In this document: positions 5,243 through 38,427 of the stretch, in pieces
Layout of the letters: every line of letters begins with the position of its first letter
How positions within the stretch are numbered: position 1 is the stretch's first letter
Assembly (NCBI GenBank): GCA_963801165.1
Contig: CAWDDT010000013.1
Coordinates: 239,209 to 303,208 of the forward strand
DNA: 64,000 nt
Origin: an uncultured bacterium
GTDB lineage: Bacteria; Actinomycetota; Acidimicrobiia; Spongiisociales; UBA5794
Direction: 5' to 3'
Notes under the pieces: model-generated
Databases searched by the model: none
Told to the model about the DNA's origin: nothing
Seen by the model: the letters and a program-made list of their open reading frames with translations, nothing else
Translations under genes and position numbers: made by a program

Positions 5243-5810
5243 GGTCGCCGTGGTTGTGGTAGCCGTACGATTCCCAGAACCCGGGACGGTCGGTGTCCGA
5301 CAAGGTCATGCCCTCGACCCATTTGGCGCTCTTCCAGAAGTACAAGTGCGGGACGAGGAGACGGGCCGGGCCGCCATGCTCCGGCTCGAGCGGCCGGCCC
5401 TCGTAGGCAATGGCGATCATCGCCTTGCCAGCGGCGATGTCGTCACGGTCGAGGTTGGTGGTGTAGCCGCCGGTGCAGTGGAACAGAGCGTGGGTTCCGG
5501 GGAACTCGCCGAGGATGGTGTCGAGCGACACACCTTCCCAGGTGGTGTCGAGCTTGGTCCACTTGGTGACGCAGTGAATGTCGACGGTGATCTTCTGCAT
5601 CGGGAGACTGGTGAACTCCTGCCATGCCCAGCTCGCCTCTTCGCCGTTGCCGCCGGTGATGGAGAAACGCCATTGCTCCTCCCGGATCCGCGGTGTCGGC
5701 CCGGCGGATAGCACCGGAAAGCCCGTCTCCAGGTACTGGCCGGGCGGCACCCGATCCGCCGGCCCCTCTGCCCGACCCCGGCGCCGGAAACCCCGGTTGA
5801 CGATGCTCAT
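5211..5810 (-). CDS. Sulfite oxidase-like molybdopterin-dependent oxidoreductase
   Basis: PPGQY, DIHCVTKW, EHGGPARLLVPHLYFWKSAKW, GFWE..GYH. Confidence 0.9.
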   Translation of the reverse strand: MSIVNRGFRRRGRAEGPADRVPPGQYLETGFPVLSAGPTPRIREEQWRFSITGGNGEEASWAWQEFTSLPMQKITVDIHCVTKWTKLDTTWEGVSLDTILGEFPGTHALFHCTGGYTTNLDRDDIAAGKAMIAIAYEGRPLEPEHGGPARLLVPHLYFWKSAKWVEGMTLSDTDRPGFWESYGYHNHGDPWLEQRFEGD

Positions 5811-6028
5811 GACACACGCCCGGGGAGCCGGCGTTCCGGCTGCGTGCGTTTCGGTCCAATGGTCATCGCGGGTCCCTTCACTGGTGAGTGCGATGCAACG
5901 CTACCGCGGGGTGAGCCGCCGGACGACGGTGGGTGCCGGCCGGGCTGTTCCGGGTGCCCACGCCGCAGAAAACCGTCTAATCGAACAGCGCCGGCTCGCC
6001 GATTTGACCGATACGCCATACTCCTGAC

Positions 6029-9147: not shown

Positions 9148-9364
9148 TTCCCTACCTTCGATCCTCGACCTGGCCACTGGGAAGTTAGCCGATGCTGTGA
9201 GCATGTGGAGGGCGAATCAGCCGTGAGGCACGACCCGTTCTGGCGTTGCAGACCGGAATATGTTCCGGTTTGCAACGCCAGAGTGGCGGGGCACGGCTGT
9301 GGCGGCCGGGGTGATCGCCCGCGGCGGCCGAATCGACTCGAGCGCGGTGTCGAAGGGACGGGCG

Positions 9365-11017: not shown

Positions 11018-13369
11018 CTACGGACCGAGCGCCCGATGCAGGAACGCTGCCATCTGGGCCCTGGTAACCGGATCGTTGGGACAGAACATGTCGTTGGTTG
11101 GAGGGTTGCAGCCCTTGGTGATCTCTGCCGCGGCCAGCTTGGCGATATCGCCTTCGAACACCGAACCGTCGTCATCGACGAACGAGTTGCCCCCGCCGTC
11201 GTCGGTCAGCCCCAACGCCCGTACCAGGAACGCCGCCATCTGACCCCTGGTCACCGAATCATTCGGGCAGAACATGTCGTTGACCGGGGGATTGCAACCC
11301 TTGGTAACGCCGACTGCACCTAGCCAGTCGATGTCGGCCGCAAACACCGAGCCGGATGAATCGTTGAACGTCACCGGGGCCCCGGCGGTGAGCACGCCGC
11401 CGAGCGCCCGATGCAGAAACGCCGCCATCTGGCCCCTGGTCACCGAATCACTGGGACAGAACAGAGTGTTGGTCGGCGGATTGCAGCCCTTGGTGATTCC
11501 CTCTGCTGCCAACCACTCCACATCGGCGTAGAAGGTATGCGTGCTTGGCACGTCGTCAAATGTAGGAGCCGGCGGCGGCTCGACCACATCGGTGACGTTG
11601 ATGGTGATGGTTGCGGTGTCGCTCAACGAGCCGTCGCTCACCAGCACGGTGAGGACGTACTGGGGGGTGGTTTCGAAGTCGAGTGCGGTCGTGGTGGTGA
11701 TCACACCTGTCGCCGGGTCGATTGCGAACGCATTGCCGGTGTTCCCCGCAGTGATGGAGTACTCGAGAGTGCCGGAACCCGTCGCAGTCACCGTTCCCAC
11801 GTTCGTTCCCACTGCGGCATCTTCGGCCACGCTGAAGCCAGCGTCGCCTACGACGACGGGCACACCGCAGGCAGCCGGGGCGCTGGTGAGCCACGGGGTG
11901 AAGTCGATGGCGGAACTCACGCTGTCACCCGCTCCGGTACCTGCGCCAGAGGGCCCTGACGCACTCCCCCACCAGTTGTTCTCGAGAGTGACGCCGCTGC
12001 CGGTGGTGTTGGTTGCCCCGGCAGTGTTGCCCGCGATGCAGTTGCCGATCGAACCGCTGCCGACAGCGGCGGTGTCAGCCAGCGACAACCCTGCGGTCGT
12101 GGAGCCGACAATCCGGTTGTTCGAAATCACAGACGACCCGACGCCAAACAACTTGATCGACGTGCCGTTCGGACGGGAGCTGCCATCGGGACCGGCTCCG
12201 AGCACGTTGCCGTCGACCAGAAAGCCGATGCCAGCCGTGTCGCCGCTCACGGCGATTCCGACGCTCGCTGCACCGATGTAGTTGTCCCGGATCTCGTTGC
12301 CGCTCGACGTTGCCAGGAGACCGTTGACCTCAACAGCGGTGGTCATAGGCGCAACCGCGCCGGTTGGGGTGATACCGAACACGTTGCCGACAACCTCATT
12401 GTCGACAATCGGGAACGTCGACCCATCGATAAGGACCCCTGTAGCGCCACCGAAGTAATTGCGCTCGAGATCGTCGGAGGTACCGTCCATATTGCTGCCC
12501 ACCACGTTCCCGGTGGCGATCTGACGCATGAACACCGGCCCGCCGCCGAGCTGGGTTGCCCCGTCTGCGGTGAACCCGATGTAGTTGCCTGCCACCGTGT
12601 GGTCGCTGCTACCGGAATCGCCGTTGATGTATATGGCTTGGGGCCCGGTATCACCGAAGACGTTGCGTTCCGCAAGGTCGTCGATGCCGTCACCGTCGGT
12701 CCCGATGATCACATGCGACGCGTCGACCTCGAGATCGATCTGGTTGGTGAAGTCACCCGTGCCGAGGTGATTCTCGCCGGGGCCGTCGAGGGCGAAATGG
12801 TTGCATGCGATCTGGTGGCCCGTTCCGTTGTTCATGAAGATGCCCGGGGTGAAGAAGGTGGAATCGTTGCTCCCGAATGCGAAGCCCCGGACGGTTGTAG
12901 CGCCGGTGGCGTTCTCGACGCTGAAGACGGTGGCGCTACCAGACGTGGGGTCGCTGACGATCTCGATTCGCATATACGACGGCTCGGTTTCGGTCGCACA
13001 CACATTGGGCTGCGGGGCGTCGTTCTGCGGCTGGGTGGTCCCATCGAGGTTCACCGCGTCGGTGACCGTCATCGGACCTTCGGTGAGAGTGAGCCGGCAC
13101 ACGCCACCGGGGCAGGAGGCGGCCGGGATGTCGAAGTCGATCGTGTCGACCCCGACGTTGGCGTTGGCGGCAGCCACCGCACCACGCAGGCTGCAGTCAC
13201 CTGCCGCTGCGGTACATGCGCTCAACGCCGCGCTGTCGACGACGGTGTCGACCACATACGGGGTGGCGGCTGCCGCAGGCGGGGCGGTGATGACGGTGAC
13301 GAGCGGTGATGCGGCCAGGATCGCGGCAGCGACCCAGGCTGTGAGACGACGGCGAGAGGCTGCTGACAT
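11018..13369 (-). CDS. Secreted CSLREA-like/cadherin/SLH surface protein (paralog 2)
   Basis: Colinear with 6802-9147; same motifs; similar upstream leader. Confidence 0.88.
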   Translation of the reverse strand: MSAASRRRLTAWVAAAILAASPLVTVITAPPAAAATPYVVDTVVDSAALSACTAAAGDCSLRGAVAAANANVGVDTIDFDIPAASCPGGVCRLTLTEGPMTVTDAVNLDGTTQPQNDAPQPNVCATETEPSYMRIEIVSDPTSGSATVFSVENATGATTVRGFAFGSNDSTFFTPGIFMNNGTGHQIACNHFALDGPGENHLGTGDFTNQIDLEVDASHVIIGTDGDGIDDLAERNVFGDTGPQAIYINGDSGSSDHTVAGNYIGFTADGATQLGGGPVFMRQIATGNVVGSNMDGTSDDLERNYFGGATGVLIDGSTFPIVDNEVVGNVFGITPTGAVAPMTTAVEVNGLLATSSGNEIRDNYIGAASVGIAVSGDTAGIGFLVDGNVLGAGPDGSSRPNGTSIKLFGVGSSVISNNRIVGSTTAGLSLADTAAVGSGSIGNCIAGNTAGATNTTGSGVTLENNWWGSASGPSGAGTGAGDSVSSAIDFTPWLTSAPAACGVPVVVGDAGFSVAEDAAVGTNVGTVTATGSGTLEYSITAGNTGNAFAIDPATGVITTTTALDFETTPQYVLTVLVSDGSLSDTATITINVTDVVEPPPAPTFDDVPSTHTFYADVEWLAAEGITKGCNPPTNTLFCPSDSVTRGQMAAFLHRALGGVLTAGAPVTFNDSSGSVFAADIDWLGAVGVTKGCNPPVNDMFCPNDSVTRGQMAAFLVRALGLTDDGGGNSFVDDDGSVFEGDIAKLAAAEITKGCNPPTNDMFCPNDPVTRAQMAAFLHRALGP

Positions 13370-14374: not shown

Positions 14375-16567
14375 ATGCGTGATGACGACCGCCGGGCTAT
14401 CCAGCAAGACAGGCTCGAGGCACTCCGTAGCGGGGGCGTCGATGCGATCGCGGCGCTGTTCGAACGGGCACCGGCGATCGCCGAGTTGGTGCAGGACACC
14501 GGCCCGCTGGCGGCGTGGCGTCCCTCGTCTGAGAACTGGACCGCAAAGCGCCTCGCCGCCGAGCTGACCAGGACGAGCAACACGGTGGCGCTGCTGGCAC
14601 ACCTCGACCGCACCCAGCAACAGCTGATCGGGTTGGCCAAATGGATGGGTGGGGCCCTCACCCGGGAACACGCAATCGCCGAGTCCGGGCTCGACCCCGA
14701 GATCCTCGACAACGCAGTAGCGGCAATGGCGGATCTGCTGTTGATCGACCCCGCAGCGGGCTGGCTGGCACTCCGGCCCGGCGTTGCCGACATGCTCCGG
14801 CTCCCGGGTGTCGTGTTTCGTGACGGAGCGGAGTACATCACGAGCGCCGATCTCGCGACCCTTTGCCGCAATCTCGGAATCAATCCGGGCCGGTTGAAGA
14901 CCGAGCGGGTCGACGCCATCGAGGCTGCTATCCGTGATCCCGACATCGTGCTGAAGAGCCTGCGTGCACTCGGTCCGGCAGCAGAGACGGCCTTCAATCG
15001 GATCGGAGCCGAAGAAGCGTTTGACCTCGATCATCTCTGGGACGACCTCGACCGCAGCCGGGACGCCTACGACCGATACGCCGAGCGGAAGCAAACAGTC
15101 ATCGACTTGCACTCGCTCGGGCTCGTCGGGCTGAACCTGTACGAGCACCGGGCATGGGTGTGGCTCGACGTGCAGGTGGCATTGCGGGGCCGGTTGTTCG
15201 ACACCTGGGATCGCGTGAAGCTCGAGTTCGTCCCGGCACCGGGTAATGCCGACGTGCGGATACCGGCCATTGTCGGCGTGGCCGAGCGCGTCGTCGCCCA
15301 TCTGTCGTCGAACCCGCAGCCGGCACTCAAGAGCGGCGGTATCGGCAGTAATGCCGTCAAGGCGCTGGCCAGGGCAGTCGGGTTGCCCTCCCCTACCACC
15401 GGGCTTGCGCTGGCACTCCTCATCGAGCTGCGGCTGCTGGGGACGGTCGTTACCGAAGCGACCGGCAGGGGCCGCAACCGAAACGTGGTCGAGGAATGGC
15501 GGCCGATCAGCAGCGACGGGTGGCGTTCGTCTGCGCCCGTCGACCGGTGGCTGCGGCTGGTTTCGACGTGGGCACAGAGCGTCCGGCTGCCGCTCACCGA
15601 AGCGCCATTGCAGCGCCATGACCTGAAAGATGAGGGTGGTTATCCGCCGCTGGCGCGAGGGCTGCTGCTGCGGGCGCTTCGCCACATCCCCGAGGGTGCC
15701 GCCGTGGACCGCAAGCAGTTTGCCCGCTGGTTTGCGTTCAGATATCCGACGATGTGCACACCCGCCATTGCCGACCAACTGGTCGATCAGGCCCGGATCC
15801 TCGGGCTTCTCGACGGCACCGATCACATCGTCCCGACGCCTCTCGCCCGTCACTGGCTGGCCGGCGAAGACCTCCATGCCGTCGTCGCTGCCGGTAGCGG
15901 GGGGTTTGTGGTGCAGGCCGATCACACCATCATCGCCCCACCCGACCTGTCGCATGAGGTGACGGTGCGGCTTCATCAGATCGCCGCCCTCGAATCGGAC
16001 CACGGTGCTCATGTCTACCGGATCGACGACCACACCCTGACTCCCGCGTTCGACGCCGATTACGACGCCGACGACATCCTGGCCTTCCTCGCCGACCACT
16101 CGACGGTCGCGATACCTGAGGTGGTGGAGCGGACGGTCCGCGACGCCGCCGCCCGTCACGGGCGTCTCCGTGTGGGGTCGACGACCACCTGGATCGCCAG
16201 TGACGACCCGGTGATGCTGTCAAACGCGGTTGCGGTCAAGCGAGCCCGGCTCACCGCCGTGTCGCCGACGGCAGCCGTCAGCGAGCTTCCCCGCAACAAG
16301 GTGGTGGCGGCGCTGCGGGCCGCCGGTATTGCCGCGGTGGACGAGAGCGTGAGAGACGACCAGCAGCAACCGAAGTCACCCGTGCAGATTTGGGGGGCGA
16401 GGACCGAGTACCCCACCATCGATCTCAACATCGACGCTCATCGGTTGGCCGCCGCTCTCGAAGACGGGACCGTCGAACCGGCCGGGCCCCTGCCCGACCC
16501 ACGTCAGTGGTGGCGAGATGCGCAATGGGACGATGACTTCGACGCAGACTTGCTCGACAGCATATGA
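14375..16567 (+). CDS. XPB-associated protein with helicase-associated (XPB N-terminal-like) domain, Rv0862c-like
   Basis: VVQADHTIIAPPDL...LESDHGAHVYRI motif; ATGA overlap with XPB gene. Confidence 0.82.
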   Translation: MRDDDRRAIQQDRLEALRSGGVDAIAALFERAPAIAELVQDTGPLAAWRPSSENWTAKRLAAELTRTSNTVALLAHLDRTQQQLIGLAKWMGGALTREHAIAESGLDPEILDNAVAAMADLLLIDPAAGWLALRPGVADMLRLPGVVFRDGAEYITSADLATLCRNLGINPGRLKTERVDAIEAAIRDPDIVLKSLRALGPAAETAFNRIGAEEAFDLDHLWDDLDRSRDAYDRYAERKQTVIDLHSLGLVGLNLYEHRAWVWLDVQVALRGRLFDTWDRVKLEFVPAPGNADVRIPAIVGVAERVVAHLSSNPQPALKSGGIGSNAVKALARAVGLPSPTTGLALALLIELRLLGTVVTEATGRGRNRNVVEEWRPISSDGWRSSAPVDRWLRLVSTWAQSVRLPLTEAPLQRHDLKDEGGYPPLARGLLLRALRHIPEGAAVDRKQFARWFAFRYPTMCTPAIADQLVDQARILGLLDGTDHIVPTPLARHWLAGEDLHAVVAAGSGGFVVQADHTIIAPPDLSHEVTVRLHQIAALESDHGAHVYRIDDHTLTPAFDADYDADDILAFLADHSTVAIPEVVERTVRDAAARHGRLRVGSTTTWIASDDPVMLSNAVAVKRARLTAVSPTAAVSELPRNKVVAALRAAGIAAVDESVRDDQQQPKSPVQIWGARTEYPTIDLNIDAHRLAAALEDGTVEPAGPLPDPRQWWRDAQWDDDFDADLLDSI

Positions 16568-18261
16568 CCGACCCCACCAACCCGCTGATCATCCAGTCCG
16601 ATCTGACGGTGCTACTCGAGGTGGCCGCACCGAAGGCCGGTGAGGCGCGAGCGGCGCTGGCCCGCTTTGCGGAGCTGGAGAAATCGCCCGAGCACATCCA
16701 CACCTACCGGATCACCCCGCTCAGCCTATGGAATGCAGCTTCGGCCGGCGTTACCAGCGACGAGGTCACGGCAGCGCTGACCGGGCTGGCCAAGTATCCA
16801 GTTCCCCCGTCGGTGCTCGCAGAGGTGGGCGATCAGATGGGTCGCTACGGACGGCTGGTGATCGTTCGCGATTTCGACAGCGGCGGGCTGGCAATCACCA
16901 CGGCGGAGCCGGCCATCCTCGAGGAAGTGGTCAGGGAGAAGTCGGTCGCCGAGTTGGTGGGGGAACGCCTCGACGGGAATCGGTTCGCGGTGCGGCTGGG
17001 TGACCGTGGTGCCCTGAAACAGGCGCTGCTGCGTCTCGGCTGGCCACCGGCGGACGAGGCCGGATACACCGAGGGCGACGTTCTCGACATCGAGCTGACC
17101 TGCCGGCTGCGTGGCTACCAGGGCGATGCGGTCGCCGCCTGGTGGGCCGACGGTTCGCCTGCGGGCGGCAACGGCACGCTTGTGCTTCCCTGCGGTGCCG
17201 GCAAGACCATCATCGGCATGGCCGCCATCGCCCAGAGCCGTGCCCACACCCTCATCGTCGCCACTTCGATCTCGGCCGCAAGACAGTGGATCCGGGAACT
17301 CGGGGACAAAACGGACATCGATATGTCGCTGGTCGGCGAATACTCGGGAGACCGCAAGGAGATCCGCCCCATCACTATCGCCACCTATCAGGTGCTCACC
17401 TGGGCGAACCCGTCGATCGACCGGAAAGCCGACCTGTTCGAACGGCATCCGCATCTCGCCCTGTTCGACCGGCAACAGTGGGGGCTGGTCGTCTACGACG
17501 AGGTGCACCTGCTGCCCGCACCGGTGTTCCGGGCCGCCGCCCGGATCCAGGCGGTGCGGCGTCTCGGGCTGACCGCCACCCTGGTGCGGGAGGATGGCAA
17601 GGAGAGTGACGTCTTCTCGCTGATCGGCCCAAAGCGTTATGACGCCCCGTGGAAGGAGTTGGAGGCTCAAGGTTGGATCGCACCTGCCGCCTGCACCGAG
17701 GTGCGGGTCGAGCTGACGGCCGAGGAGCGGATGGAATATGCGCTCACCGACCCCAAGCGCCGCTACCGGACCGCAGCAACCGCGCCCGCCAAGATGGCCG
17801 TTGTCAAACAGCTCGCCGAGCGTCACGCCGACGATCAGGTCTTGATCATCGGCCAGTACCTCGACCAGCTGCGCGACGTTGCCAGAATGCTCGACGCCCC
17901 CATCATCACCGGCCAAACCGCCCAGTCCGTGCGGGATCAACGCTTCGACGCGTTCCGCACCGGCGAGCTGCGCAGGCTCGTCGTATCGAAGGTGGCCAAC
18001 TTCTCCATCGACCTGCCCAACGCCAACGTGGCCATCCAGATCTCAGGAACCTTCGGCAGCCGTCAGGAGGAAGCCCAGAGGCTGGGACGGATCCTCCGGC
18101 CGGACGTCGACGGCCTGGTCTCCCACTTCTACACCATCGTCTCCCGGGAAACGGTCGACCAACGCTTCGCCGCCAACCGGCAACGCTTCCTGGCCGAGCA
18201 GGGCTATGCCTACTTCATCGTCGACGCCGACCAACTCGAGACCCTCCCCCCCGGGATGTGA
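16564..18261 (+). CDS. xpb: DNA repair helicase XPB/ERCC3 family
   Basis: PLIIQSDLTVLLE, LPCGAGKT, DEVH, GLTAT, SRQEEAQRLGRILRP. Confidence 0.95.
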   Translation: MTDPTNPLIIQSDLTVLLEVAAPKAGEARAALARFAELEKSPEHIHTYRITPLSLWNAASAGVTSDEVTAALTGLAKYPVPPSVLAEVGDQMGRYGRLVIVRDFDSGGLAITTAEPAILEEVVREKSVAELVGERLDGNRFAVRLGDRGALKQALLRLGWPPADEAGYTEGDVLDIELTCRLRGYQGDAVAAWWADGSPAGGNGTLVLPCGAGKTIIGMAAIAQSRAHTLIVATSISAARQWIRELGDKTDIDMSLVGEYSGDRKEIRPITIATYQVLTWANPSIDRKADLFERHPHLALFDRQQWGLVVYDEVHLLPAPVFRAAARIQAVRRLGLTATLVREDGKESDVFSLIGPKRYDAPWKELEAQGWIAPAACTEVRVELTAEERMEYALTDPKRRYRTAATAPAKMAVVKQLAERHADDQVLIIGQYLDQLRDVARMLDAPIITGQTAQSVRDQRFDAFRTGELRRLVVSKVANFSIDLPNANVAIQISGTFGSRQEEAQRLGRILRPDVDGLVSHFYTIVSRETVDQRFAANRQRFLAEQGYAYFIVDADQLETLPPGM

Positions 18262-19709: not shown

Positions 19710-20768
19710 CTACGGGAACCACTCCGCCGGTGTGGCGAACGTGGCCGTGTACTTCGCCGGGTCCTGGCCCTCGTACCAGGGCATCGTCTTTGGCGACCTG
19801 TAGTTGAACACCAGCTCGGGAGGGCCACCTTGATGGTGCTTCAGCACGAGCTTGATTGCGTTCTCGTCCGGGTGCCCGTAGAACTGGCTGCTCGAGGAGA
19901 TCAGGTACCGCTTCGTACGGACCAGCTTGATCACATTCTTGGTGATGTTGCTGAAGCTGCCGTGATGGGGCAGCTTGAAGTCGCGAACCTCGAGCGGCCC
20001 TCCGTGATCGGCCGCATACCGGGATAGGGCTCGCTCGAGCACCGGGGCGTGAGCGTCTCCCGTCAGCAACGCCACAGTCCCCCCGTGCTCTGCGATCACG
20101 GCGATGCTCGACCCGTTGGCGGCCTTGTCGTCGGGCTTCTCGCCGAGCACACCCGCGGGCGGTCCGTAGCGGGCTCGTTTCTCCAGCTCGGCGAGCACAC
20201 TGTCCCGGTCGCGAGGGCCGGTGAAACCGGAGCTGGTCAGACTCTTCGGCCATTCCTTGCGCAGCTCCTCTAGCTCCAACGGGCCCGGCGAGACGAGGGT
20301 CAGCCGGATGTCGCCTTCGAGCTCGAAGATGGGCAGCTTTCCGTCGGCGTGCACCATCACCGGGCCACCGCCCAGTTTCTCGTGGGCGTTCCAGCGCATT
20401 CCCTTCTCCTCGAGGAGTGCCCCGAGCATCTCGCCCTGGAGTGCTCCGAGCACGCCGGTTGCCCCCTTCTGGATGTGCTTCCACCCGTTGAACCAGACGT
20501 CCTTGAACTTGATCGCCTCGAGCTCGGGATCCTGGAGCAACTTGATGATGCCATCGATGTGGTCGGTATCGACGTGGGTGACGATGAGCAGCTCAAAGTT
20601 GGTTTCGCCCCGATCCCGCAGCTCGCCGAGCCGTTTGCGGATCCCCCAATCACCCTCGTAGGCAAACCACGGACCCCCGTCGATGAGGATCCGGCGCACC
20701 GGGTTGTCGCCGTAGCGGACGATCAGGGCGTCACCGTGCCCGGCGGCCAGCATCTCTACTTCGAGCAA
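19710..20768 (-). CDS. MBL-fold metallohydrolase (ComEC/Rec2-like)
   Basis: GHGDA, ILIDGG, THVDTDHIDG, LLTGDA, KLPHHGS, GHP. Confidence 0.9.
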   Translation of the reverse strand: MLEVEMLAAGHGDALIVRYGDNPVRRILIDGGPWFAYEGDWGIRKRLGELRDRGETNFELLIVTHVDTDHIDGIIKLLQDPELEAIKFKDVWFNGWKHIQKGATGVLGALQGEMLGALLEEKGMRWNAHEKLGGGPVMVHADGKLPIFELEGDIRLTLVSPGPLELEELRKEWPKSLTSSGFTGPRDRDSVLAELEKRARYGPPAGVLGEKPDDKAANGSSIAVIAEHGGTVALLTGDAHAPVLERALSRYAADHGGPLEVRDFKLPHHGSFSNITKNVIKLVRTKRYLISSSSQFYGHPDENAIKLVLKHHQGGPPELVFNYRSPKTMPWYEGQDPAKYTATFATPAEWFP

Positions 20769-20769
20769 T

Positions 20770-23454
20770 TCAATCCCCTCCCGGAGTGAATCGCCAGTCG
20801 GCGTCTCCGTAGGCCACCAGCGCCATGGTCATCACATTGCTCTCACGCAGCATCGTGATACGCACCCGTTGCATGATCTCGCCAAATGTCGCTTCGCCTC
20901 TGGCTTGCCAGAGATGGCGAACGAACGCTTCGGCGATGCGAGCCATGTCCGGCCCGAGCACGTAGGTGAGAGTGCCGACGACCACCGCTGCTCCCTTGCA
21001 GCGGAAGCGCTGGATGAAGTCCTGGTACTGCACCTCGGAATTGGCCGTGTTGCAGCCGAACAGGAGCACTACCGGCCCGGGCGGCTGGTCCCTGGCGACC
21101 ACGTGTGGCTGCTCCAGCCGGATCAGGGCGAGATCCTGGTCGGCACCGATCTCCAGAGCATCCCAAGCCTGGGCGGTCTTCACTTTGTGTGGCAGGGCCA
21201 CGAGAAGCGCCGGATAGTGGCTGTCGACGAGACGCTGCCACTCCCGCCAGTCGTCGGCGACGTGGACGCGGGTCGCAGGATCGGTGGCTGCCGTGGCATC
21301 CCCGATGGCGGCCTTGATCCCGGCAACCGTGTCGTCGATCCGGGTCGGCTCGTCCTCGTTGACGAGCTTGGAGGCGGCAAAGATCACGTCTGGTGCCGCC
21401 GGCAAAGCCGCTCGGGCCGCGGATGACATGGGGGCGAGACAGTCGTTGTCCCGGCCCTCCCGCCCTTCGGCCCAGACACGCTGCTCCAGGTGACGGTTCA
21501 ACCCCCAGAACCCGGACGGGCAAACGAACGCGGTGTTCCCCTGTGCCTGACAGCCGTCGCATGCGCCGTCGGTGGTTTGGAGGAACCGTGGACAGAGCTG
21601 GGCATCATCGTCGGGTAGCCCGTAGTCGTAGAAGAACTCCACGGGCAGGTAGTCGGCCGACACGGGGCTGGAGACCGCGACCCGTTTCACGGCGCCGAGA
21701 TCGCCGGAGCCGATGAGGAGGTCGCGCAGCACCCAGCCGTGCTGTGCCAGCGTGATCAGCACCTGAAGCCCGCCGGCCTCGTTGAGCTTCGTCTCCAGTT
21801 GCTGGACCGCGGTGGCGGCGTCGAACAGGGTGGTGCGAAGCACCGCCACCTCCTGGTCGATGCCCGGAAGCTTCACGTCCCAGGGTTCCTCGCCACGTTG
21901 CCAGACTTTGACCACGTCACGTTCCTTCGTGAAGGACATGTCGAGGGCGGACTTGGCATCGAGGTCGGCGGTGCTGCCGTCGCCGCGCAGCAGACGGATG
22001 CCTTCGCCGGCGGGGTCCTCATCGTCAGGCGACACCGGTCCGGTGAGGGTGGCGGTCTGCAAGTGCAGACCGTGGCAGAACACGGTCACACTCGCCTCGA
22101 CATGGTCGATTCCCGCCGGGACGTCGACCGGGAATGTCGCGGTGTTGCTGTCGCCGACCTGCCCGAGCACCACTGTCTCGGTCTTCAGGCCCTCGAACAG
22201 CGACGGCGCTCTGAGGTCGATCGTCAGCTCGTGCTGGCGTTCCTCCGCGGGCAGCCTCCACTCGGGGAACGCAATCCCGGCACGGTTCCATTCGGCCGAG
22301 GTGCGTCCGATGCGCACCACGATGTCGTGGGGAGCACCGGGGCGGAAGGCGTTCTGCCGTCGCTGTGGCGTCCCCGAGCTGAGGTCGTTCACCTGGGTTT
22401 GGAGGTATCGAGGGCTGGCGGTGACCTCGCCGTCACCGTGTGGCCTCGTCGACCGTGTGGCGTTGGCCGCGGCGACCACCGGTTCGACATCGGCGAGGAC
22501 GTGGCGAGCGGCAGTAGCCGCTCCGCCTTCGGCCATCCAGGACAGGCCGTCGAGGCTGTGCAGTTCGTCGAAAGCGAGGTTCATCTCCTGGTGCTCGAGC
22601 CGGCCGCTCGCCCAGGCGTCCTCGACGGCACGACGCACCTCGGTGACGACTGCCGAGACTCGCGCCGAGTCGACGAACTCGGCATCGCCGATGAGCAGGT
22701 AGTCGGTGTCTGCGGCCGCCATGCCGAACGCCAGATCGGGCGGATGGTTGTGCGCCAGCCCGTCGAAGAAGCGCCAGGTGAACTCGTCACCGTTGTCCGG
22801 TCCGGTGGTCGCGGCTACCGCCGAAGCTTCGAACTGTGCGGCGACCTCCCTCAGATGCTCGAGCGTGATGAACTGGGGGTCGACGCCGTACAGCACGACC
22901 AGCGACGGACCGATGAATCGAGCGGCGTCTGCTGCTTGCGGGACCTGGACCACCGCGATGTCGCAGAGAGCGTATCGATCCGTGATGTCGGTGAGCTCGA
23001 TCAAGTCGGGGTGCCCGTAGGAGCCGAACCGGTCACGGAGCGGGTCGGACGGGATGGTGGCGACTCGCACCGGCCAATGCCACTGGCGCCGACCCGAACA
23101 TGTGTAGTCGGCCAGGAAAACCGAGCTGACGGCAGTGGCGCGGCGGAGTGCCTGGTACGGCGCAGTCCACTCCCCGCCATCGGTCAGCTCGAGCCGGGTG
23201 CGGATGGCCCGCCCGGTCTCGTCACCGGGGTAAGTGTGGGCAGCCGTCTGCCACGCCAGCGCGAGCGCGTCTGCGTCGCCCTGGTCCACGTCGAGCTCGC
23301 CGCCGAGACGGACCCGGGCGTACCCGGCCTCGAGATGACGTTTCAGGATCTCTACCGGCGGCTCGGGCAGATGGTGCAGCGGCAAAGGCGTGCCCGCTTC
23401 GTATTTCAGGACCCCGTATGCAGCCAGCGCGTCGGGGTTGTCCATCAGGTTCAT
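20770..23454 (-). CDS. Large protein with C-terminal CHAT (caspase-like) protease domain
   Basis: LPVEFFYD, FWGL, putative His (VALPH) and Cys (LFGCNT) dyad, GAAVVVGTL, GEIMQRVR...AYGDADW; central beta-sandwich. Confidence 0.72.
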   Translation of the reverse strand: MNLMDNPDALAAYGVLKYEAGTPLPLHHLPEPPVEILKRHLEAGYARVRLGGELDVDQGDADALALAWQTAAHTYPGDETGRAIRTRLELTDGGEWTAPYQALRRATAVSSVFLADYTCSGRRQWHWPVRVATIPSDPLRDRFGSYGHPDLIELTDITDRYALCDIAVVQVPQAADAARFIGPSLVVLYGVDPQFITLEHLREVAAQFEASAVAATTGPDNGDEFTWRFFDGLAHNHPPDLAFGMAAADTDYLLIGDAEFVDSARVSAVVTEVRRAVEDAWASGRLEHQEMNLAFDELHSLDGLSWMAEGGAATAARHVLADVEPVVAAANATRSTRPHGDGEVTASPRYLQTQVNDLSSGTPQRRQNAFRPGAPHDIVVRIGRTSAEWNRAGIAFPEWRLPAEERQHELTIDLRAPSLFEGLKTETVVLGQVGDSNTATFPVDVPAGIDHVEASVTVFCHGLHLQTATLTGPVSPDDEDPAGEGIRLLRGDGSTADLDAKSALDMSFTKERDVVKVWQRGEEPWDVKLPGIDQEVAVLRTTLFDAATAVQQLETKLNEAGGLQVLITLAQHGWVLRDLLIGSGDLGAVKRVAVSSPVSADYLPVEFFYDYGLPDDDAQLCPRFLQTTDGACDGCQAQGNTAFVCPSGFWGLNRHLEQRVWAEGREGRDNDCLAPMSSAARAALPAAPDVIFAASKLVNEDEPTRIDDTVAGIKAAIGDATAATDPATRVHVADDWREWQRLVDSHYPALLVALPHKVKTAQAWDALEIGADQDLALIRLEQPHVVARDQPPGPVVLLFGCNTANSEVQYQDFIQRFRCKGAAVVVGTLTYVLGPDMARIAEAFVRHLWQARGEATFGEIMQRVRITMLRESNVMTMALVAYGDADWRFTPGGD

Positions 23455-23735
23455 CGTGACACCCACAAGGTCGAGATTCCTTCCGTAAGCAGTTCCTGAT
23501 ATGCGTCTGCCACCTGGCCGGGGTTGCCCTCGAGCAGGCTGCGGCCGAACTTCTCGAGACCCGGATCGCCACCGAGCACCCCGCCGCCGGCGAGGATCGG
23601 GCCGATCCCCTCGTTGGAGACGACCTCCCGCGGAGGAATCCCGATGCCATCGCCGGACGGCCAGCCGGTCAGCTCGATGTCGAGGTCGCGAAACACCACG
23701 ATGTCGCTAGAGCCGTGTTGCTCGCTACCCGGCAT
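23451..23735 (-). CDS. Small hypothetical protein in patatin-CHAT operon (start could be 23810; could be CHAT N-terminus if an indel is present)
   Basis: Fills gap between patatin and CHAT genes; stop overlaps CHAT ATG (ATGA). Confidence 0.55.
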   Translation of the reverse strand: MPGSEQHGSSDIVVFRDLDIELTGWPSGDGIGIPPREVVSNEGIGPILAGGGVLGGDPGLEKFGRSLLEGNPGQVADAYQELLTEGISTLWVSR

Positions 23736-23806
23736 GTCGCTGTCACCCCGCGGCAATGTGTTGGCGTTCCGCTGCCCGGGGTGGTCCTCCTTCCCGGTTG
23801 GGCCGC

Positions 23807-25432
23807 TCAATCGAGACCAAAGAGGTTCTGCAGTTCGTTGCGTGTCGGGAACCGGGCGGTGCCGATCCCGTGGACGACGTAGAGGGCGACGAGCGTCAGC
23901 ACGGCGGAATGCTCGATGAGGTCGAGCACGGTATCGCTCTCGAGGGCGGATAGCACGGTACCTACCGTCCCATTTCTCTCGACGACCTGCGCCCAGCGGT
24001 CGGGAGGGCCGAGAACGTCGAGCGCTTCCCGTGCCCGGTCTCGTTGCTCGGCAATGGGGCTGTTCGTGAACTGGTTGCAGATCGCCACCGGCGAGGTGCC
24101 CATGTGGATGATGACGCCGATGGGTCCGGCACCGGACGTCTCCCCCGCCCGGAACGCGGCGACCACGCCACGCCGTCGCTGGGCGGTCGTGGCGTCGTAT
24201 TGGATGCCCTCGTCGCGGACGAGGCCCCGGATCTCACGCCAGACGTTGTTGGTGCGCCGCATCGTGGTCCAGCCGAGCGCCTTGCCGGCGTTGGAGACAA
24301 CCATGAAGTGGGCGGCGGGTTGCGAATCGCGCACCAGGTCGGATCGTTTGGCCCGGCGGGCGAAACCGAATGACCATTCCTCGCCCATGTTGTCGTAGAC
24401 GCCTCCGTCGGCGAGGACGATGCGCTGCACCGGTGTCGCCGGGGCATCGGCCGGGACGGTCCAGGGCCGGTCGAGTTGGACTGCGGGGACCAGCTCGGTC
24501 TCCTGCGGGGGGAAGCCACCGGGAAGGGAAGCGGAGGCCTGGACGGCCTGGGCGAGCGACATGGCGGGAGCTGCGATCTCCCCGAGCAGGAAGCCGTGCA
24601 TCAGCTTCGGGCTGAGATAGAAATGGTCGCCCGATTGCAGCTCACTGGCGCAGAAGACGTGGTGTACGGCCCGGTCGGCGAGATCCGAGAGCCTGGTGGG
24701 GCGGCTGTCGGTGGAGAAGAACATCCGGGCGAGGTTGTCCTCGACGATCCGGCCCCGGGCGGCGAACAATCCGAAGCCGATCCACCACAGCAGCCCGGAG
24801 ATGATGGCGATGAGCACCACGACCCGGGTTGCCTGCCACCCGTCGAGGGTAGTGCCCAGCCAGACGCCGAGACCGAGGATGGCGCCGGCAACGGCGGCGC
24901 CGATGGTCTGCAGAGCCAGCGGTTTCATGGCTACCGCGGCGCCACGTAGGCCCCGCCACAGAGCGAAGAGAAGAGCCGCGGCGGCGAATGCGATGATCGG
25001 GACGATGAAGGCGGCTGCGCCCCAGTCACGTCCGGCCGAGGTAAGGGCACCGGCGACGATCAGCGAGGTGATGAGAGCGGCGCCTGCGGTGGCGATAAGC
25101 GTCCCCAGGTAGCGCCGGGTGGGTTGCCCGGGGATCAGCCCGGGCCCGGTCATGTTGTCGATGCAGCCGCGGATGGCCGTCAGGTAGCGGTCCTCGGTGA
25201 CGGTGTTCAGGTCCTGGATCTCGTGGGCGACCACGCCGTTGGCCACCGATCCGCCGGAGACGCTGGCGACCGATGCAATCTGGATGTGGAGTGCGTCCTC
25301 CGCCGTGTGGTCGCGGGCTCGCAGCAGAGCGAACAGAGTGCCGAACCCCCAGCTGGTCGCCCGGTACCCGCCGCCCGACAGAGCGACGTCTACAAGAAGC
25401 GGGTCGGTATACAGCTCCTCCCGATCGCCCAT
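23807..25432 (-). CDS. Patatin-like phospholipase with ~4 inserted transmembrane helices
   Basis: ALSGGGYRA, SVSGGS nucleophile, DGGVYDN; hydrophobic block approx. aa 110-220. Confidence 0.88.
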   Translation of the reverse strand: MGDREELYTDPLLVDVALSGGGYRATSWGFGTLFALLRARDHTAEDALHIQIASVASVSGGSVANGVVAHEIQDLNTVTEDRYLTAIRGCIDNMTGPGLIPGQPTRRYLGTLIATAGAALITSLIVAGALTSAGRDWGAAAFIVPIIAFAAAALLFALWRGLRGAAVAMKPLALQTIGAAVAGAILGLGVWLGTTLDGWQATRVVVLIAIISGLLWWIGFGLFAARGRIVEDNLARMFFSTDSRPTRLSDLADRAVHHVFCASELQSGDHFYLSPKLMHGFLLGEIAAPAMSLAQAVQASASLPGGFPPQETELVPAVQLDRPWTVPADAPATPVQRIVLADGGVYDNMGEEWSFGFARRAKRSDLVRDSQPAAHFMVVSNAGKALGWTTMRRTNNVWREIRGLVRDEGIQYDATTAQRRRGVVAAFRAGETSGAGPIGVIIHMGTSPVAICNQFTNSPIAEQRDRAREALDVLGPPDRWAQVVERNGTVGTVLSALESDTVLDLIEHSAVLTLVALYVVHGIGTARFPTRNELQNLFGLD

Positions 25433-28978: not shown

Positions 28979-30016
28979 GTGATGATGAAGTTGTTGGTCG
29001 GTACCGAGAAGGGCGCATATCTTCTCGAGGAGTCGGGAAGCGATTGGGGGGTCACCGGGCCGATGTTCCCCGGCTGGAAGACGACCGCCTTTGGCGTGGC
29101 CCCGGACGGGACGAACCTGGCCGCAGTCGGGAGCAACTGGTTCGGAATCGGTGTTCAGCGCTCCGAGGACCTCGTCAACTGGTCGCAGACGGAGGCCCCG
29201 CCGGCATGGCCCGAGGACACCGACCGCAAGATGGAGCAGATCTGGACCTTCCACACTTCCGGTGACCGCCTCTGGGCGGGTGTCGCCCACGCCGGGTTGT
29301 TCGTCTCCGCCGACCAGGGTGTGACCTGGTCTCCGGTCGATGGTCTCAACGAGCATCGCACCCGGGCCGATTGGCAACCCGGCTTCGGTGGCCTGTGCGC
29401 CCACCGGGTCAACATCGACGGTGACGCCCAGTGGGTGTCGATCTCGGCGGTGGGTGTCTTCCGATCCGACGACGGCGGTGCCAGCTGGGTGCCGAAGAAC
29501 GACGGAGTGGACTCCGTCGGTCTTCCCGACGACGCCCCCCGCCCCGAGGTGGGGTATTGCGTCCATTGTGTCGCCCACGACCCCGCCGACCCCATGAAGA
29601 TCTGGCGCCAGGACCACAGCGGCGTGTATCGCACCGCCGACGGTGGCGACAACTGGGAGAAGATAGAGAACGGTCTGCCGGCCGGCTTCGGCTTTGTGAT
29701 GTGGCGCGACGACTCGAGCGGACGTTTGTTCACCGTCCCGCTCGCCGCCGATTCCAACCGGGTGCCTGTCGACGGCGAGTTGCGGGCCTACCGCTCCGAC
29801 GACGAAGGCGATTCGTGGCAGGTCGCCGGCACCGGATGGCACGACGCGCCGCAATTCACCGGTGTGCTGCGGGGAGCCTTCGACGGTGACGACCAGGGTG
29901 CGTTCTGCTTTGGCACCACCGGTGGGAAGCTGTGGCTGACGAGAGACAACGGTGACTCGTGGAATGAGCTGGAACCGTCATTCCCCCGCATCGGTGCGGT
30001 GCGCCTGATCCCATGA
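28979..30016 (+). CDS. BNR/Asp-box beta-propeller protein (copy 1)
   Basis: LLVGTEKG; repeated S.D.G..W Asp-boxes. Confidence 0.88.
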   Translation: MMMKLLVGTEKGAYLLEESGSDWGVTGPMFPGWKTTAFGVAPDGTNLAAVGSNWFGIGVQRSEDLVNWSQTEAPPAWPEDTDRKMEQIWTFHTSGDRLWAGVAHAGLFVSADQGVTWSPVDGLNEHRTRADWQPGFGGLCAHRVNIDGDAQWVSISAVGVFRSDDGGASWVPKNDGVDSVGLPDDAPRPEVGYCVHCVAHDPADPMKIWRQDHSGVYRTADGGDNWEKIENGLPAGFGFVMWRDDSSGRLFTVPLAADSNRVPVDGELRAYRSDDEGDSWQVAGTGWHDAPQFTGVLRGAFDGDDQGAFCFGTTGGKLWLTRDNGDSWNELEPSFPRIGAVRLIP

Positions 30017-30927: not shown

Positions 30928-31873
30928 ATGATCTCGGGCTACAACGACCGACGAATTGGGGCGCTGCTTGGTTTGGCAATCGGTGACGCGCTGGGGGCCG
31001 CGGTGGAGTTCCGGCCGCCGGGGACCTTCCCGCCGGTGACCGGGTACCGCGACGGCGGACCGCATGGGCTGAACGCAGGCGAGTGGACCGACGACACCTC
31101 CATGGCGCTGGCGCTGGCCGACTCGTTGGCCACCGTAGGCTGGGACCTGAACGATCAGGCCGACCGATACCTTTCGTGGTACCGCACCGGCAAGTACTCG
31201 GTGAACGGCCGCTGCTTCGACATCGGCAACGCCACCCGGCAGGCGCTCGAGACGTACGCCAGGACCGGGGATGCACCCACGTCTGGACCTGATGGCGAGC
31301 ACAGCGCCGGGAACGGCTCGATCATGCGCCTGGCACCCGTACCGATCTTCTACGCGGACCTGTATCCAGATCGGACGGACGAGCTGATCCGGTATGGGCG
31401 GGATTCGAGCCTGCCCACCCATCGTGCCCCGCAGGCGACGTCGGCGGCTGCATACATGACACTGCTACTGGCGGCGTTGATGGCCGGCGAGGATCGCGCT
31501 GCCGTGCTGGATCCGGACTGGCCGATGCTGGATGCTCTGCGGTCGACAGTCGACACCCATCCCGCCATCGACGAGGTGAGCAACGGCAGCTTCCGCAGCG
31601 ACCCGCCCGACATCAAGGGCTCCGGCTACGTGGTGCGAAGTCTGGAGGCGGCGCTGTGGGCATTTTCCCGATCGGACGGCTTTGACGGAAGCGGTCTCGA
31701 GCGCCGTCAACCTCGGCGACGACGCCGACACGACGGGTGCTGTCTGCGGCCAACTCGCAGGTGCCTACTGGGGGCTCAGCGGCATTCCCGACACCCTCCG
31801 TCATGGCCTTGCCCGGAGCGAGGTCGTAGAGGATGCCGCAAGGCGACTTCTCCGAGGCGAGGAGCCCGTATGA
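30928..31873 (+). pseudogene. ADP-ribosylglycohydrolase (copy 1, +1 frameshift at ~31684)
   Basis: GDALG, WTDDT, AGNGSIMR, DADTTGAV; tttgacgg versus tttacgg in copy 2. Confidence 0.85.
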
Positions 31874-32400
31874 AGCTTGCCGACGGTGATCATCCGCCGA
31901 AGAAAGGGACCTACTGGGTCGTTCCCGGGAAGCTCCTCGCCGGACCATTTCCCGGCTCGGCCGATCCCGACGGGGTGTCCGAGGCGGTTGGCCCCCTGCT
32001 CGACGTCGGGGATCACAACGTTCCTGAATCTGATGGAACCAACCGAGACCGACCACAGCGGCGATCCGTTCACCCCGTACGAAGCGGCACTTGGCCCGCG
32101 GGCGGCGATGCTTCGGCGCCCGATCACGGACCTGTCGATCCCGAGCCGGGAGGACATGATCGCCATCCTGGATGACATCGATGCCGGCTGTCGCAAATGG
32201 AGCCGTCTACGTGCACTGCTGGGGCGGTGTGGGCCGCACCGGCACTGTTGTCGGTTGCTGGTTGTTGCGACACGGATATGCGGTGCCGTCGGACGTCATC
32301 GACACGATCCAGTCGCTGCGGCAGGTCGATCCGGTGCGCGGCCATGCCTCTCCCCGAACGGACGCCCAGAGCTTCGTGTCGGGTGGAGCGAGAGAAGTGA
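31870..32400 (+). pseudogene. Cys-based (dual-specificity/PTP-like) phosphatase (copy 1, several frameshifts)
   Basis: HCWGGVGRTG; indels near 32010, 32187 and 32345 relative to copy 2. Confidence 0.8.
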
Positions 32401-32492: not shown

Positions 32493-33530
32493 GTGATGAT
32501 GAAGTTGTTGGTCGGTACCGAGAAGGGCGCATATCTTCTCGAGGAGTCGGGAAGCGATTGGGGGGTCACCGGGCCGATGTTCCCCGGCTGGAAGACGACC
32601 GCCTTTGGGGTGGCGCCGGACGGGACGAACCTGGCCGCAGTCGGGAGCAACTGGTTCGGAATCGGTGTTCAGCGCTCCGAGGACCTCGTCAACTGGTCGC
32701 AGACGGAGGCCCCGCCGGCATGGCCCGAGGACACCGACCGCAAGATGGAGCAGATCTGGACCTTCCACACTTCCGGTGACCGCCTCTGGGCGGGTGTCGC
32801 CCACGCCGGATTGTTCGTCTCCGCCGACCAGGGTGTGACCTGGTCACCGGTCGATGGTCTCAACGAGCATCGCACCCGGGCCGACTGGCAACCCGGCTTC
32901 GGTGGCCTGTGCGCCCACCGGGTCAACATCGACGGTGACGCCCAGTGGGTGTCGATCTCGGCGGTGGGTGTCTTCCGATCCGACGACGGCGGTGCCAGCT
33001 GGGTGCCGAAGAACGACGGAGTGGACGCCGTCGGTCTTCCCGACGACGCCCCCCGCCCCGAGGTGGGGTATTGCGTCCATTGTGTCGCCCACGACCTCGC
33101 CGACCCCATGAGGATCTGGCGCCAGGACCACAGCGGCGTGTATCGCACCGCCGACGGTGGCGACAACTGGGAGAAGATCGAGAACGGTCTGCCGGCCGGC
33201 TTCGGCTTTGTGATGTGGCGGGACGCCTCGAGCGGACGTTTGTTCACCGTCCCGCTCGCCGCCGATTCCAACCGGGTGCCCGTCGACGGCGAGCTGCGGG
33301 CCTACCGCTCCGACGACGACGGCGATTCGTGGCAGGTCGCCGGTACCGGATGGCACGACGCGCCGCAATTCACCGGCGTGCTGCGGGGAGCCTTCGACGG
33401 TGACAACCGGGGTGCGTTCTGCTTTGGCACCACCGGTGGGAAGCTGTGGCTGACGAGAGACAACGGTGACTCGTGGAATGAGCTGGAACCGTCATTCCCC
33501 CGCATCGGTGCGGTGCGCCTGATCCCATGA
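32493..33530 (+). CDS. BNR/Asp-box beta-propeller protein (copy 2)
   Basis: Few substitutions versus copy 1. Confidence 0.88.
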   Translation: MMMKLLVGTEKGAYLLEESGSDWGVTGPMFPGWKTTAFGVAPDGTNLAAVGSNWFGIGVQRSEDLVNWSQTEAPPAWPEDTDRKMEQIWTFHTSGDRLWAGVAHAGLFVSADQGVTWSPVDGLNEHRTRADWQPGFGGLCAHRVNIDGDAQWVSISAVGVFRSDDGGASWVPKNDGVDAVGLPDDAPRPEVGYCVHCVAHDLADPMRIWRQDHSGVYRTADGGDNWEKIENGLPAGFGFVMWRDASSGRLFTVPLAADSNRVPVDGELRAYRSDDDGDSWQVAGTGWHDAPQFTGVLRGAFDGDNRGAFCFGTTGGKLWLTRDNGDSWNELEPSFPRIGAVRLIP

Positions 33531-38258: not shown

Positions 38259-38427
38259 GGCCCCACCCTTGAGTCTTCGATATGACCCCTGAGAAACTAC
38301 TCGCCTCTTCGGCGAATTGGCCGGGCTCTTTTGGTCCCCCTTTTCAGCATCTACCGGCAGCAAGTCCGCACTGTGACCCGAGATCTTCGAGGGAATCGGC
38401 CGGAACTACCAGGCGGCGAGACCGCCG

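Follow-up and report, generated by a model that had tools for sequence, protein, structure and literature searches.

A candidate caspase-nuclease conflict locus with a patatin-like lipase in an uncultured bacterium of the Acidimicrobiia

What kind of system is encoded by a compact four-gene operon of an uncultured bacterium of the Acidimicrobiia (assembly GCA_963801165.1, contig CAWDDT010000013.1), and which of its four genes belong to it? The operon occupies positions 19710-25432, on the minus strand, of a 64,000-nucleotide (nt) stretch of this contig, called the window here. A first reading of the letters alone (the sequence-only reading) had described four same-strand genes with overlapping or abutting ends, for a patatin, a small open reading frame (ORF), a CHAT-like protease and a hydrolase of the metallo-beta-lactamase (MBL) fold, and had taken them for an unnamed system in which the protease activates a membrane lipase and/or a nuclease. 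From the comparison of related loci, we consider it probable, though well short of certain, that the operon encodes a conflict module of the canu (caspase-nuclease) type, extended by a membrane lipase. The window proteins are called P0001 to P0004, and related loci carry L numbers. The four genes are the following.

23807-25432, minus strand: P0001, patatin-like phospholipase, 541 amino acids (aa)
23451-23810, minus strand: P0002, small ORF, 119 aa, TTG start
20770-23466, minus strand: P0003, big protein, candidate caspase/CHAT-like cysteine protease, 898-aa ORF
19710-20768, minus strand: P0004, putative MBL-fold ComEC-like pro-nuclease, 352 aa, TTG start

The gene junctions were found as first described. 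The patatin stop and the small-ORF start share a TTGA overlap, the small-ORF stop overlaps in ATGA with the ATG at 23454, which is residue 5 of the 898-aa ORF, and 1 nt lies between the P0003 stop and the TTG start of the MBL gene. The ATG at 23454 is the start used by the P0003 homologues, and M5 is invariant in their alignment (A4); it is the probable start of P0003, giving 894 aa.

The candidate protease-nuclease pair

The MBL protein P0004 is matched by the PADLOC models LmuA (2.1e-58), RTasMBL (2.1e-43) and Avs1a (7.5e-37), and by the NCBIfam models Avs1a (1.5e-52, with 178.6 bits versus an equivalog cut-off of 420) and ComEC/Rec2 (4.7e-14). The Pfam MBL match is weak, with 20.6 bits and below cut-off. 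When a profile of 35 members was searched against the PDB, ComEC nuclease domains were found at 1.9e-13 and 3.6e-12. The PADLOC, NCBIfam and PDB matches together place the MBL in one homologous family with the protease-gated nucleases of Hachiman, AVAST and Lamassu. The PADLOC scan of each gene that the sequence-only reading had proposed was informative for the MBL, but gave nothing for the big protein and the small ORF. The match to ComEC is divided into two blocks, between which about 139 profile positions stand versus about 60 residues in ComEC (about 80 extra), and two loops with a Leu-Gly pair both fall in this stretch that is absent from ComEC. The HxDxDH motif on which the MBL had been recognised is present as HVDTDH, and further motifs are GDAH at residue 237 and HHGS at residue 268.

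20559-20576, minus strand: HVDTDH metal-binding motif at residue 65; H65, D67, D69 and H70 invariant in 35 sequences
20445-20456, minus strand: loop 1, GVLG at residues 105-108, candidate cut site; L107 invariant in the 35 sequences
20142-20153, minus strand: loop 2, GVLG at residues 206-209, second candidate cut site; Leu-Gly in 41 of 43 MBLs

In loop 1, an aligned Leu-Gly is found in 37 of the 43 MBLs and Leu-Ala-Gly in the remaining six. For loop 2 the 41 is a count, and about 40 are aligned by eye, the exceptions being L012, L014 and L019. The background frequency of the Leu-Gly dipeptide is 0.9%. Judged by these sequence features, P0004 is a member of a protease-gated ComEC-like pro-nuclease family.

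The linkage of this MBL to the big gene was examined in 101 loci, 21 from a scan of one genome per species and 80 from metagenomes. In the genome scan, an MBL homologue stands right behind the big gene in 21 of 21 loci, which belong to at least seven phyla, namely the Pseudomonadota, Actinomycetota, Gemmatimonadota, Acidobacteriota, Chloroflexota, Chrysiogenota and Thermodesulfobacteriota. The conserved module of P0003 is matched by 45 of the 101 loci, and the MBL is present in all 42 of those with at least 400 nt downstream; the gap between the two genes is 4-39 nt in 40 of them and wider (86 and 514 nt) in two. Another 56 loci match only the last ~300 residues, and since the MBL is found in only 5 of the 33 that have at least 1200 nt downstream, the protease domain also occurs in other contexts. 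In a plasmid collection, the MBL adjoins the big gene in 6 of 6 records. The pair on plasmid pMYCSM01 of Mycobacterium sp. JS623 (L104, 97776-113428), annotated as "hypothetical" by NCBI, lies behind an 836-aa protein with weak TPR matches and among two TIR-domain proteins, one caspase-family protein and one WD40 protein. The gene that follows the pair directly encodes a second MBL-fold protein (488 aa) in L027 (9868-11334) and a protein with an alpha/beta-hydrolase and a nucleotide-cyclase domain in L007 (9736-11139).

A maximum likelihood tree was calculated from 42 MBLs after 6 near-duplicates had been removed. The 38 MBLs linked to a P0003-type protease, that of the window among them, are separated from four trypsin-linked MBLs (Hachiman, ABC-3C) by a branch with support 99/97, and the internal order of the tree is incongruent with taxonomy. 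This split fits the trypsin, caspase and subtilisin MBL clades as they are described in the main text of PMC12642450.

The big protein P0003 belongs to a large family, with 1500 representatives at E <= 1e-3 and 611 at E <= 1e-30 in a HMMER search of 1.84 billion representatives (50% identity). Most of the homologues align only from about residue 350 to the end and have N-termini of different length, so that a conserved module (residues ~350-893) follows a variable N-terminal part of ~350 aa. The N-terminal fusions vary as well, with a Cpn60 chaperonin, a Pro-kumamolisin activation domain and an S8 peptidase in 1 of 41 homologues each. In P0090 (1112 aa), a Cpn60/TCP-1 chaperonin domain (1.8e-70) stands in front of the conserved protease module. 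A fast word-index search gave 3 close proteins for P0003 and 4 for the profile A4, with no informative names, and 400 other genomes of the same phylum gave one weak match of 65 residues (7.5e-4). The features of the conserved module that bear on its function are these.

21187-21189, minus strand: His760, candidate catalytic histidine, in ALPH(760)KV; invariant in 150 of 150 homologues
21052-21054, minus strand: Cys805, candidate catalytic cysteine, in LFGC(805)NTA; invariant in 150 of 150 homologues
21520-21594, minus strand: four-Cys cluster (C625, C636, C639, C649) ahead of the protease domain

In the 150 aligned sequences, the family contexts of the two candidate catalytic residues are LLVLLPH and VLLLGCxTA. 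The conserved His/Cys domain reaches the last residues of the protein, where G887 and W891 are invariant. In the cysteine cluster, C625 and C649 are invariant and C636 and C639 at least 90% conserved, and the cluster is possibly a metal site.

The sequence-only reading had taken the big gene to encode an ~890-aa protein that ends in a CHAT-like domain. This holds as far as the invariant His760 and Cys805 and weak CHAT links among the homologues go, but P0003 itself is not matched by Pfam CHAT (PF12770). Pfam CHAT matches 4 of 41 P0003 homologues (best 7e-7); in the homologue P0039 it reaches 23.8 bits versus a cut-off of 24 and covers profile positions 189-257, the Cys region that contains the Cys805 stretch. 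The PADLOC model BovA (E <= 0.01), for which the model table gives no description and which we take to be the CHAT protease of the single-gene system Borvo, matches 10 of the 41 homologues (best 8.3e-10). When the family profile was compared by hhalign with the CHAT domain of L033 (Pfam 5e-57), Cys805 was placed on the CHAT Cys motif (E 0.0033), and the comparison with a second CHAT domain, from L024, was weaker (E 0.13). Because P0003 itself matches no model, the label "CHAT-like" rests on the homologues and on the conserved dyad, and P0003 is regarded as a candidate caspase/CHAT-like cysteine protease.

The lipase slot and the small ORF

The first gene of the operon encodes a member of the Pfam Patatin family (PF01734; 9.5e-9, with 36.2 bits above the 27.7 cut-off). 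The motifs and inserted membrane helices that had been noticed in it are all present: GGGYR at residue 20, SVSGG at 57 and DGGVYD at 342, with four hydrophobic segments (helices) at residues 108-226 inserted between the Ser and the Asp motif. The Gly-rich, Ser and Asp motifs are kept in 12 of 12 aligned patatins of related loci, and the four-helix insert is confined, among these 12, to the window and L025.

A patatin is adjacent to the protease/MBL pair in 17 of the 45 loci, in three arrangements. The usual position is directly upstream of the pair, at a distance of -15 to 80 nt (L003: 480 nt), and most of the upstream cases show either a 4-nt overlap with the protease gene or a gap of 0-64 nt. 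In L024 the patatin lies 4.9 kb upstream, because an insert separates it from the protease gene. In three loci the patatin is found downstream on the same strand, and in one (L045) downstream on the opposite strand. In L016 (Desulfofustis glycolicus), L026 and L028, the closest full-length relatives without a patatin, the upstream slot is filled by a Tle1-like phospholipase (PF09994, ~1e-81). The 26 fully flanked loci comprise 12 with a patatin, 3 with an adjacent Tle1-like lipase, 2 with a Tle1-like lipase ~5 kb away and 9 with neither. A lipase thus stands beside the pair in 15 of 26, a count somewhat inflated by the near-copy loci L008/L009, L018/L021, L027/L030 and L033/L046. Lipase-bearing loci are spread over several phyla and over all three main branches of the MBL tree.

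Because two unrelated folds alternate in one slot across all three branches, the pattern argues that the lipase is a functional accessory. It does not establish a regulation of the lipase by the protease. The co-occurrence of four genes that the sequence-only reading implied was recovered in part: strictly for the big gene and the MBL, in more than half of the fully flanked loci for a lipase, but not for the small ORF.

The small ORF P0002 has no match in Pfam, PADLOC or NCBIfam, and no homologue of it was found in the 101 loci, save for its first 61 codons in L024. It is lacking in L025, whose protease is 72% identical and whose patatin abuts the protease gene with a gap of ~25 nt, and it is absent from every other patatin-bearing locus. 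A lone ORF of 119 aa is unremarkable here, since 13 kb of this region, with 66% guanine-cytosine (GC) content, contain 101 ORFs of 50 aa or longer.

The origin of P0002 can be read from L024, a sister strain, in which 4.66 kb with two genes lie between patatin and protease. The first gene (L024:1104-4784) is a 1226-aa ORF with the same TTG start, with CHAT (1.3e-19) and nSTAND1 NTPase (2.4e-28) domains and a hydrophobic C-terminus, and the product of the second (L024:4523-6016), which ends in the same ATGA overlap, carries a lipoprotein-type signal. The first 61 codons of P0002 match the start of the first gene, and its tail matches pieces of the second (blastn). The L024 positions retained in the window are those up to 1274, 5431-5481, 5578-5609, 5821-5882 and 5942 onward.

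23513-23643, no strand: deletion scar, a four-piece mosaic whose long-form spacings are 4.2 kb, 96 nt, 211 nt and ~59 nt

Identity between the window and L024 is 99.4% downstream of the scar (20073-23525) and 95.3% upstream of it (23635-24913), and this drop suggests recombination or separate histories of the two operon halves. The short form was recovered in contigs of run X1, possibly the source sample, which span 23000-23778 without a difference, and in an X3 contig that spans 23571-24087, across the main junction. The long form was seen in X2, whose contigs break at the junctions, and in an X5 contig of 7640 nt. Because both forms occur in nature, the small ORF is a natural in-frame deletion scar: it is the remnant of a deleted CHAT-nSTAND1 NTPase gene and a deleted lipoprotein gene and not a conserved gene. 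It was wrongly counted among the components of the system at first, as the two genes are intact in L024. Insertion followed by loss is the most likely order, because distant patatin-bearing loci are without the insert. No tandem repeat accounts for the scar. A GVLG in the small ORF was considered as a third cut site and rejected, being inherited from the lipoprotein tail.

The L024 insert (L024:1104-6016) places a second CHAT protease in the transcription unit of the caspase-like/MBL pair. Another instance of a second CHAT protease beside the pair is found in L033 (886-4578, minus strand) and likewise in L046, where the gene of a TPR-CHAT protein of 1230 aa (Pfam CHAT 5e-57) lies just upstream of the pair in divergent orientation.

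Relation to published systems and proposed mechanism

The pair is of a kind that is already in print, and the claim of an unnamed system falls for this reason. As described in the main text of PMC12799240, the genes of one clade of gated nucleases lie downstream of those of caspase-family proteases ("canu", for caspase-nuclease loci), with conserved glycines in both gating insertions of the nuclease. The Klebsiella aerogenes CanABC protects against T4, which requires both active sites and both predicted cut sites, and mutating either predicted site abolishes defence; the middle protein CanB, of a function given there as not known, binds the caspase (PMC12799240). The same text describes canu loci as variable, with genes of unknown function and a protease that is usually standalone rather than fused, and presents a single tested example while calling their diversity unexplored. 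In the main text of PMC12642450, protease-associated MBLs form three clades (trypsin-like, caspase-like and subtilisin-like), of which the first alone was dissected. By its sequence features, the protease-MBL arrangement of the window matches the canu loci and "MBL clade 2" as they appear in these two descriptions. In both, an MBL-type nuclease gene follows immediately on the gene of a caspase-family or candidate protease, an adjacency and order kept in 42 of 42 loci here, and the nuclease has two insertions with a conserved glycine each, here the Leu-Gly loops in the ~80 positions that are extra to ComEC. The present loci differ in that a lipase is attached in 15 of the 26 that are fully flanked, and in that the protease domain stands at the extreme C-terminal end of a ~900-aa protein, behind a Cys cluster. 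Since the tree holds no published clade-2 or CanC sequence, we infer the identity with clade 2 from these shared features.

Other systems share parts of this design. The trypsin-MBL modules of Hachiman (HamMAB), AVAST (Avs1/Avs2), Lamassu/ABC-3C, DRT and short Argonaute have a homologous MBL and, in the text of 10.1101/2025.09.03.673762, the same logic of an MBL pro-nuclease switched on by two loop cuts from a linked protease. They differ in a protease of the serine type that is fused to a helicase, STAND or SMC sensor, in an MBL gene that lies upstream (L105-L108) and in cleavage at a KSS motif, whereas Leu-Gly is the candidate here and the MBLs sit on the separate branch described above. The plasmid-borne MBLs of Enterobacter, Providencia, Shewanella and E. 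coli were considered as prototype canu and rejected, as they belong to ABC-3C or Hachiman trypsin-MBL modules. AVAST type 1 does not fit, given the Avs1a score far under the equivalog cut-off and an operon with no STAND or trypsin gene in the window; the STAND gene of the L024 long form carries CHAT, not trypsin. Lamassu/ABC-3C does not fit either, as the neighbours are a protease, a patatin, an MFS transporter and toxin-antitoxin genes, with no SMC/ABC ATPase among them, and in the genuine ABC-three-component examples L106 and L108 the MBL is upstream. Borvo differs in that BovA matches part of the homologues but not the P0003 of the window, and Borvo is not known to have a linked MBL.

For the lipase, a precedent of a protease-gated lipolytic effector is the Lysobacter capsici system, in which two cuts by a caspase-like protease activate an alpha/beta hydrolase of lipase-like homology (~290 aa). 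The cuts fall after an Arg that is followed by Gly, and no MBL is described in the main text (PMC12642450). CBASS CapV shares the patatin-fold phospholipase as a membrane-disrupting death effector, but it is activated by cyclic nucleotides as described in PMC12480259, and the four-helix membrane insert is particular to the window lineage. The locus does not resemble CBASS further, as no cyclase was found among the operon and scanned neighbour genes and P0001 has no PADLOC CapV match. Full-text searches of the literature gave no lipase partner of canu or MBL modules, nor is one named in the main text of PMC12799240 and PMC12642450; patatin is also unmentioned in the text of 10.1101/2025.09.03.673762, and the supplementary trees and locus tables of these three papers may show such loci.

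The gene order, homology, conservation, motifs and deletion were established here directly, and for relatives of this MBL activation by proteolysis has been shown by experiment (PMC12799240, PMC12642450 and 10.1101/2025.09.03.673762). From both, we infer that this protease cuts this MBL at the Leu-Gly sites in response to a trigger and that the lipase has a role in the outcome. In the proposed mechanism, P0003 would be a clan-CD cysteine protease that is activated by a signal; its variable N-terminal ~350 aa, perhaps with the conserved stretch before the protease domain, probably hold the protease inactive and receive the trigger. The MBL would be made as a pro-enzyme whose two inserted loops occlude the active site. 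The activated protease would cut each loop at its Leu-Gly or beside it (GVLG at 105-108 and 206-209), and the freed DNase, acting indiscriminately, would stop phage replication through cell death or arrest. The patatin, presumably embedded in the membrane by its four-helix insert, may be a second effector or a membrane-targeting partner, and in sister lineages the Tle1-like lipase may take its slot. The scar would have no function of its own beyond keeping the overlapping start and stop codons, perhaps for translational coupling. That the protease gates a nuclease, as the sequence-only reading had proposed, fits with the place of the MBL in a pro-nuclease family, the strict linkage and the two loop motifs; for the lipase, the corresponding proposal is plausible.

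Several observations weigh against a canu-type module with an added lipase. P0003 itself has no match in Pfam, PADLOC or NCBIfam at E <= 0.1, so neither a CHAT nor a caspase model recognises it. The hhalign probability of the L033 CHAT match is low (9.7%), and the PDB profile search gave nothing at E <= 1 and four matches at E <= 10, not significant (E 1.4), among which separases, aligned at the Cys805 stretch, are the sole natural proteins. In the published CanABC, a C-terminal Ig-like fold follows the caspase and a CanB gene is present, whereas in P0003 the protease domain extends to the C-terminus, and the MBL gene follows with none in between; the likeness to the tested canu locus is drawn from its published description and not from a comparison with the CanA and CanC sequences. 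The neighbour genes that were scanned do not make the window an obvious defence island, the two toxin-antitoxin pairs aside. As to the lipase, the alignment of 12 patatins holds no conserved candidate cut site or Leu-Gly loop, and the lipase is dispensable for the core, because none is detectable in 9 of the 26 fully flanked loci.

The last two points would equally be expected if the protease and MBL were a canu-type pair and the patatin a mere neighbour, an independent lipase or defence gene neither cut nor regulated by the protease. The varying place of the patatin, before or behind the pair and in L045 on the opposite strand, and the silence of the main text of PMC12799240 and PMC12642450 on a lipase partner point the same way. 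We regard such a neighbour as unlikely, though by no means far-fetched, in view of the overlaps and short gaps that join most upstream patatins to the protease gene, the recurrence across three major MBL-tree branches and several phyla, the non-homologous Tle1-like lipase in the same slot of L016, L026 and L028, and the Lysobacter precedent for a lipase-like hydrolase under a caspase-like protease (PMC12642450). A bolder proposal goes in the opposite direction: one caspase-like protease would arm both a DNase and a membrane phospholipase of exchangeable fold, and the STAND-CHAT protein of L024 would be an initiator that processes the ~900-aa executioner in a two-tier cascade, the window strain having lost the initiator. 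This we hold to be rather doubtful.

The canu-type module could also serve something other than phage defence, as a device of self-destruction, DNA turnover or inter-bacterial conflict (developmental death, competence-like processing or kin discrimination). Among solved structures, those closest to the MBL are of competence nucleases, the genes around the operon are ordinary (besides the two toxin-antitoxin pairs, they encode an MFS transporter, an XPB-type helicase and S-layer proteins), and Tle1-like lipases are named after type VI secretion effectors. This use is quite improbable, however, as the MBL fits defence models (2e-58) far better than ComEC (4.7e-14), a tested caspase-nuclease locus protects against phage T4 (PMC12799240), the pair on the JS623 plasmid lies among TIR, caspase-family and WD40 genes, and the spread is patchy and incongruent with taxonomy as in defence genes, with a single weak match in 400 genomes of the phylum. 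The small ORF, finally, could be a real regulatory subunit, such as a CanB-like partner or an inhibitor of the protease, kept because it is useful. It is open and in frame, both overlapping junctions are preserved, two samples, X1 and X3, contain the short form, and the prototype canu has a caspase-binding middle protein (PMC12799240). Against this stand the lack of any homologue in 101 loci beyond the 61 codons in L024, the absence from L025 and all other patatin-bearing loci, and the make-up of the ORF as a chimera of the N-terminus of the 1226-aa CHAT-STAND protein and four fragments of the lipoprotein tail; an in-frame outcome arises by chance in about 1 of 3 cases. A functional small ORF is therefore very hard to credit, and the canu-type module with an added membrane lipase is the reading that we prefer.

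Surroundings of the operon and significance

The host genome comprises 4.55 Mb in 13 contigs (98% complete, 5.6% contamination), and the big gene is single-copy in it. The GC content is 0.65-0.69 across the region, with no composition break at the operon. Upstream, the two toxin-antitoxin pairs that had been seen beside the operon are arranged in tandem, head to tail and on the same strand, with a gap of ~310 nt to the patatin start.

27295-26490, minus strand: TacA1-like antitoxin (8.7e-15) and GNAT toxin, a pair with overlapping genes
26380-25743, minus strand: RHH antitoxin and PIN toxin (5.4e-17), a pair with overlapping genes

Downstream of the operon lie an MFS transporter gene and then a helicase pair on the plus strand (14375-18261), in which the gene of an XPB/ERCC3-type helicase (565 aa) overlaps the one before it, for a 730-aa protein that shares its Helicase_C_3 domain. 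Two ORFs with BNR/Asp-box repeats, both of 345 aa and 3.5 kb apart (28979-30016 and 32493-33530, plus strand), look like a local duplication, and an ADP-ribosylglycohydrolase gene (30928-32175) lies between them. Furthermore, cadherin-like and S-layer homology domains are found in three large paralogous surface proteins (6802-9204, 11018-13369 and 35913-38363, minus strand).

Work of 2025 established protease-gated nucleases as an effector cassette that is widely shared in bacterial immunity. The P0003 family is a large one, with its 1500 representatives at 50% identity, and the window copy is missed by the Pfam, PADLOC and NCBIfam models. Relative to the published canu descriptions, what is new is the form that carries a lipase, and the natural occurrence of the operon both with and without the CHAT-STAND gene. 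The long and short forms provide a natural comparison of the operon with and without a CHAT-STAND sensor. The recurrent third partner of the pair, a lipase of either of two unrelated folds, poses the question of whether a bacterial caspase-like protease may control the destruction of membrane and DNA together.

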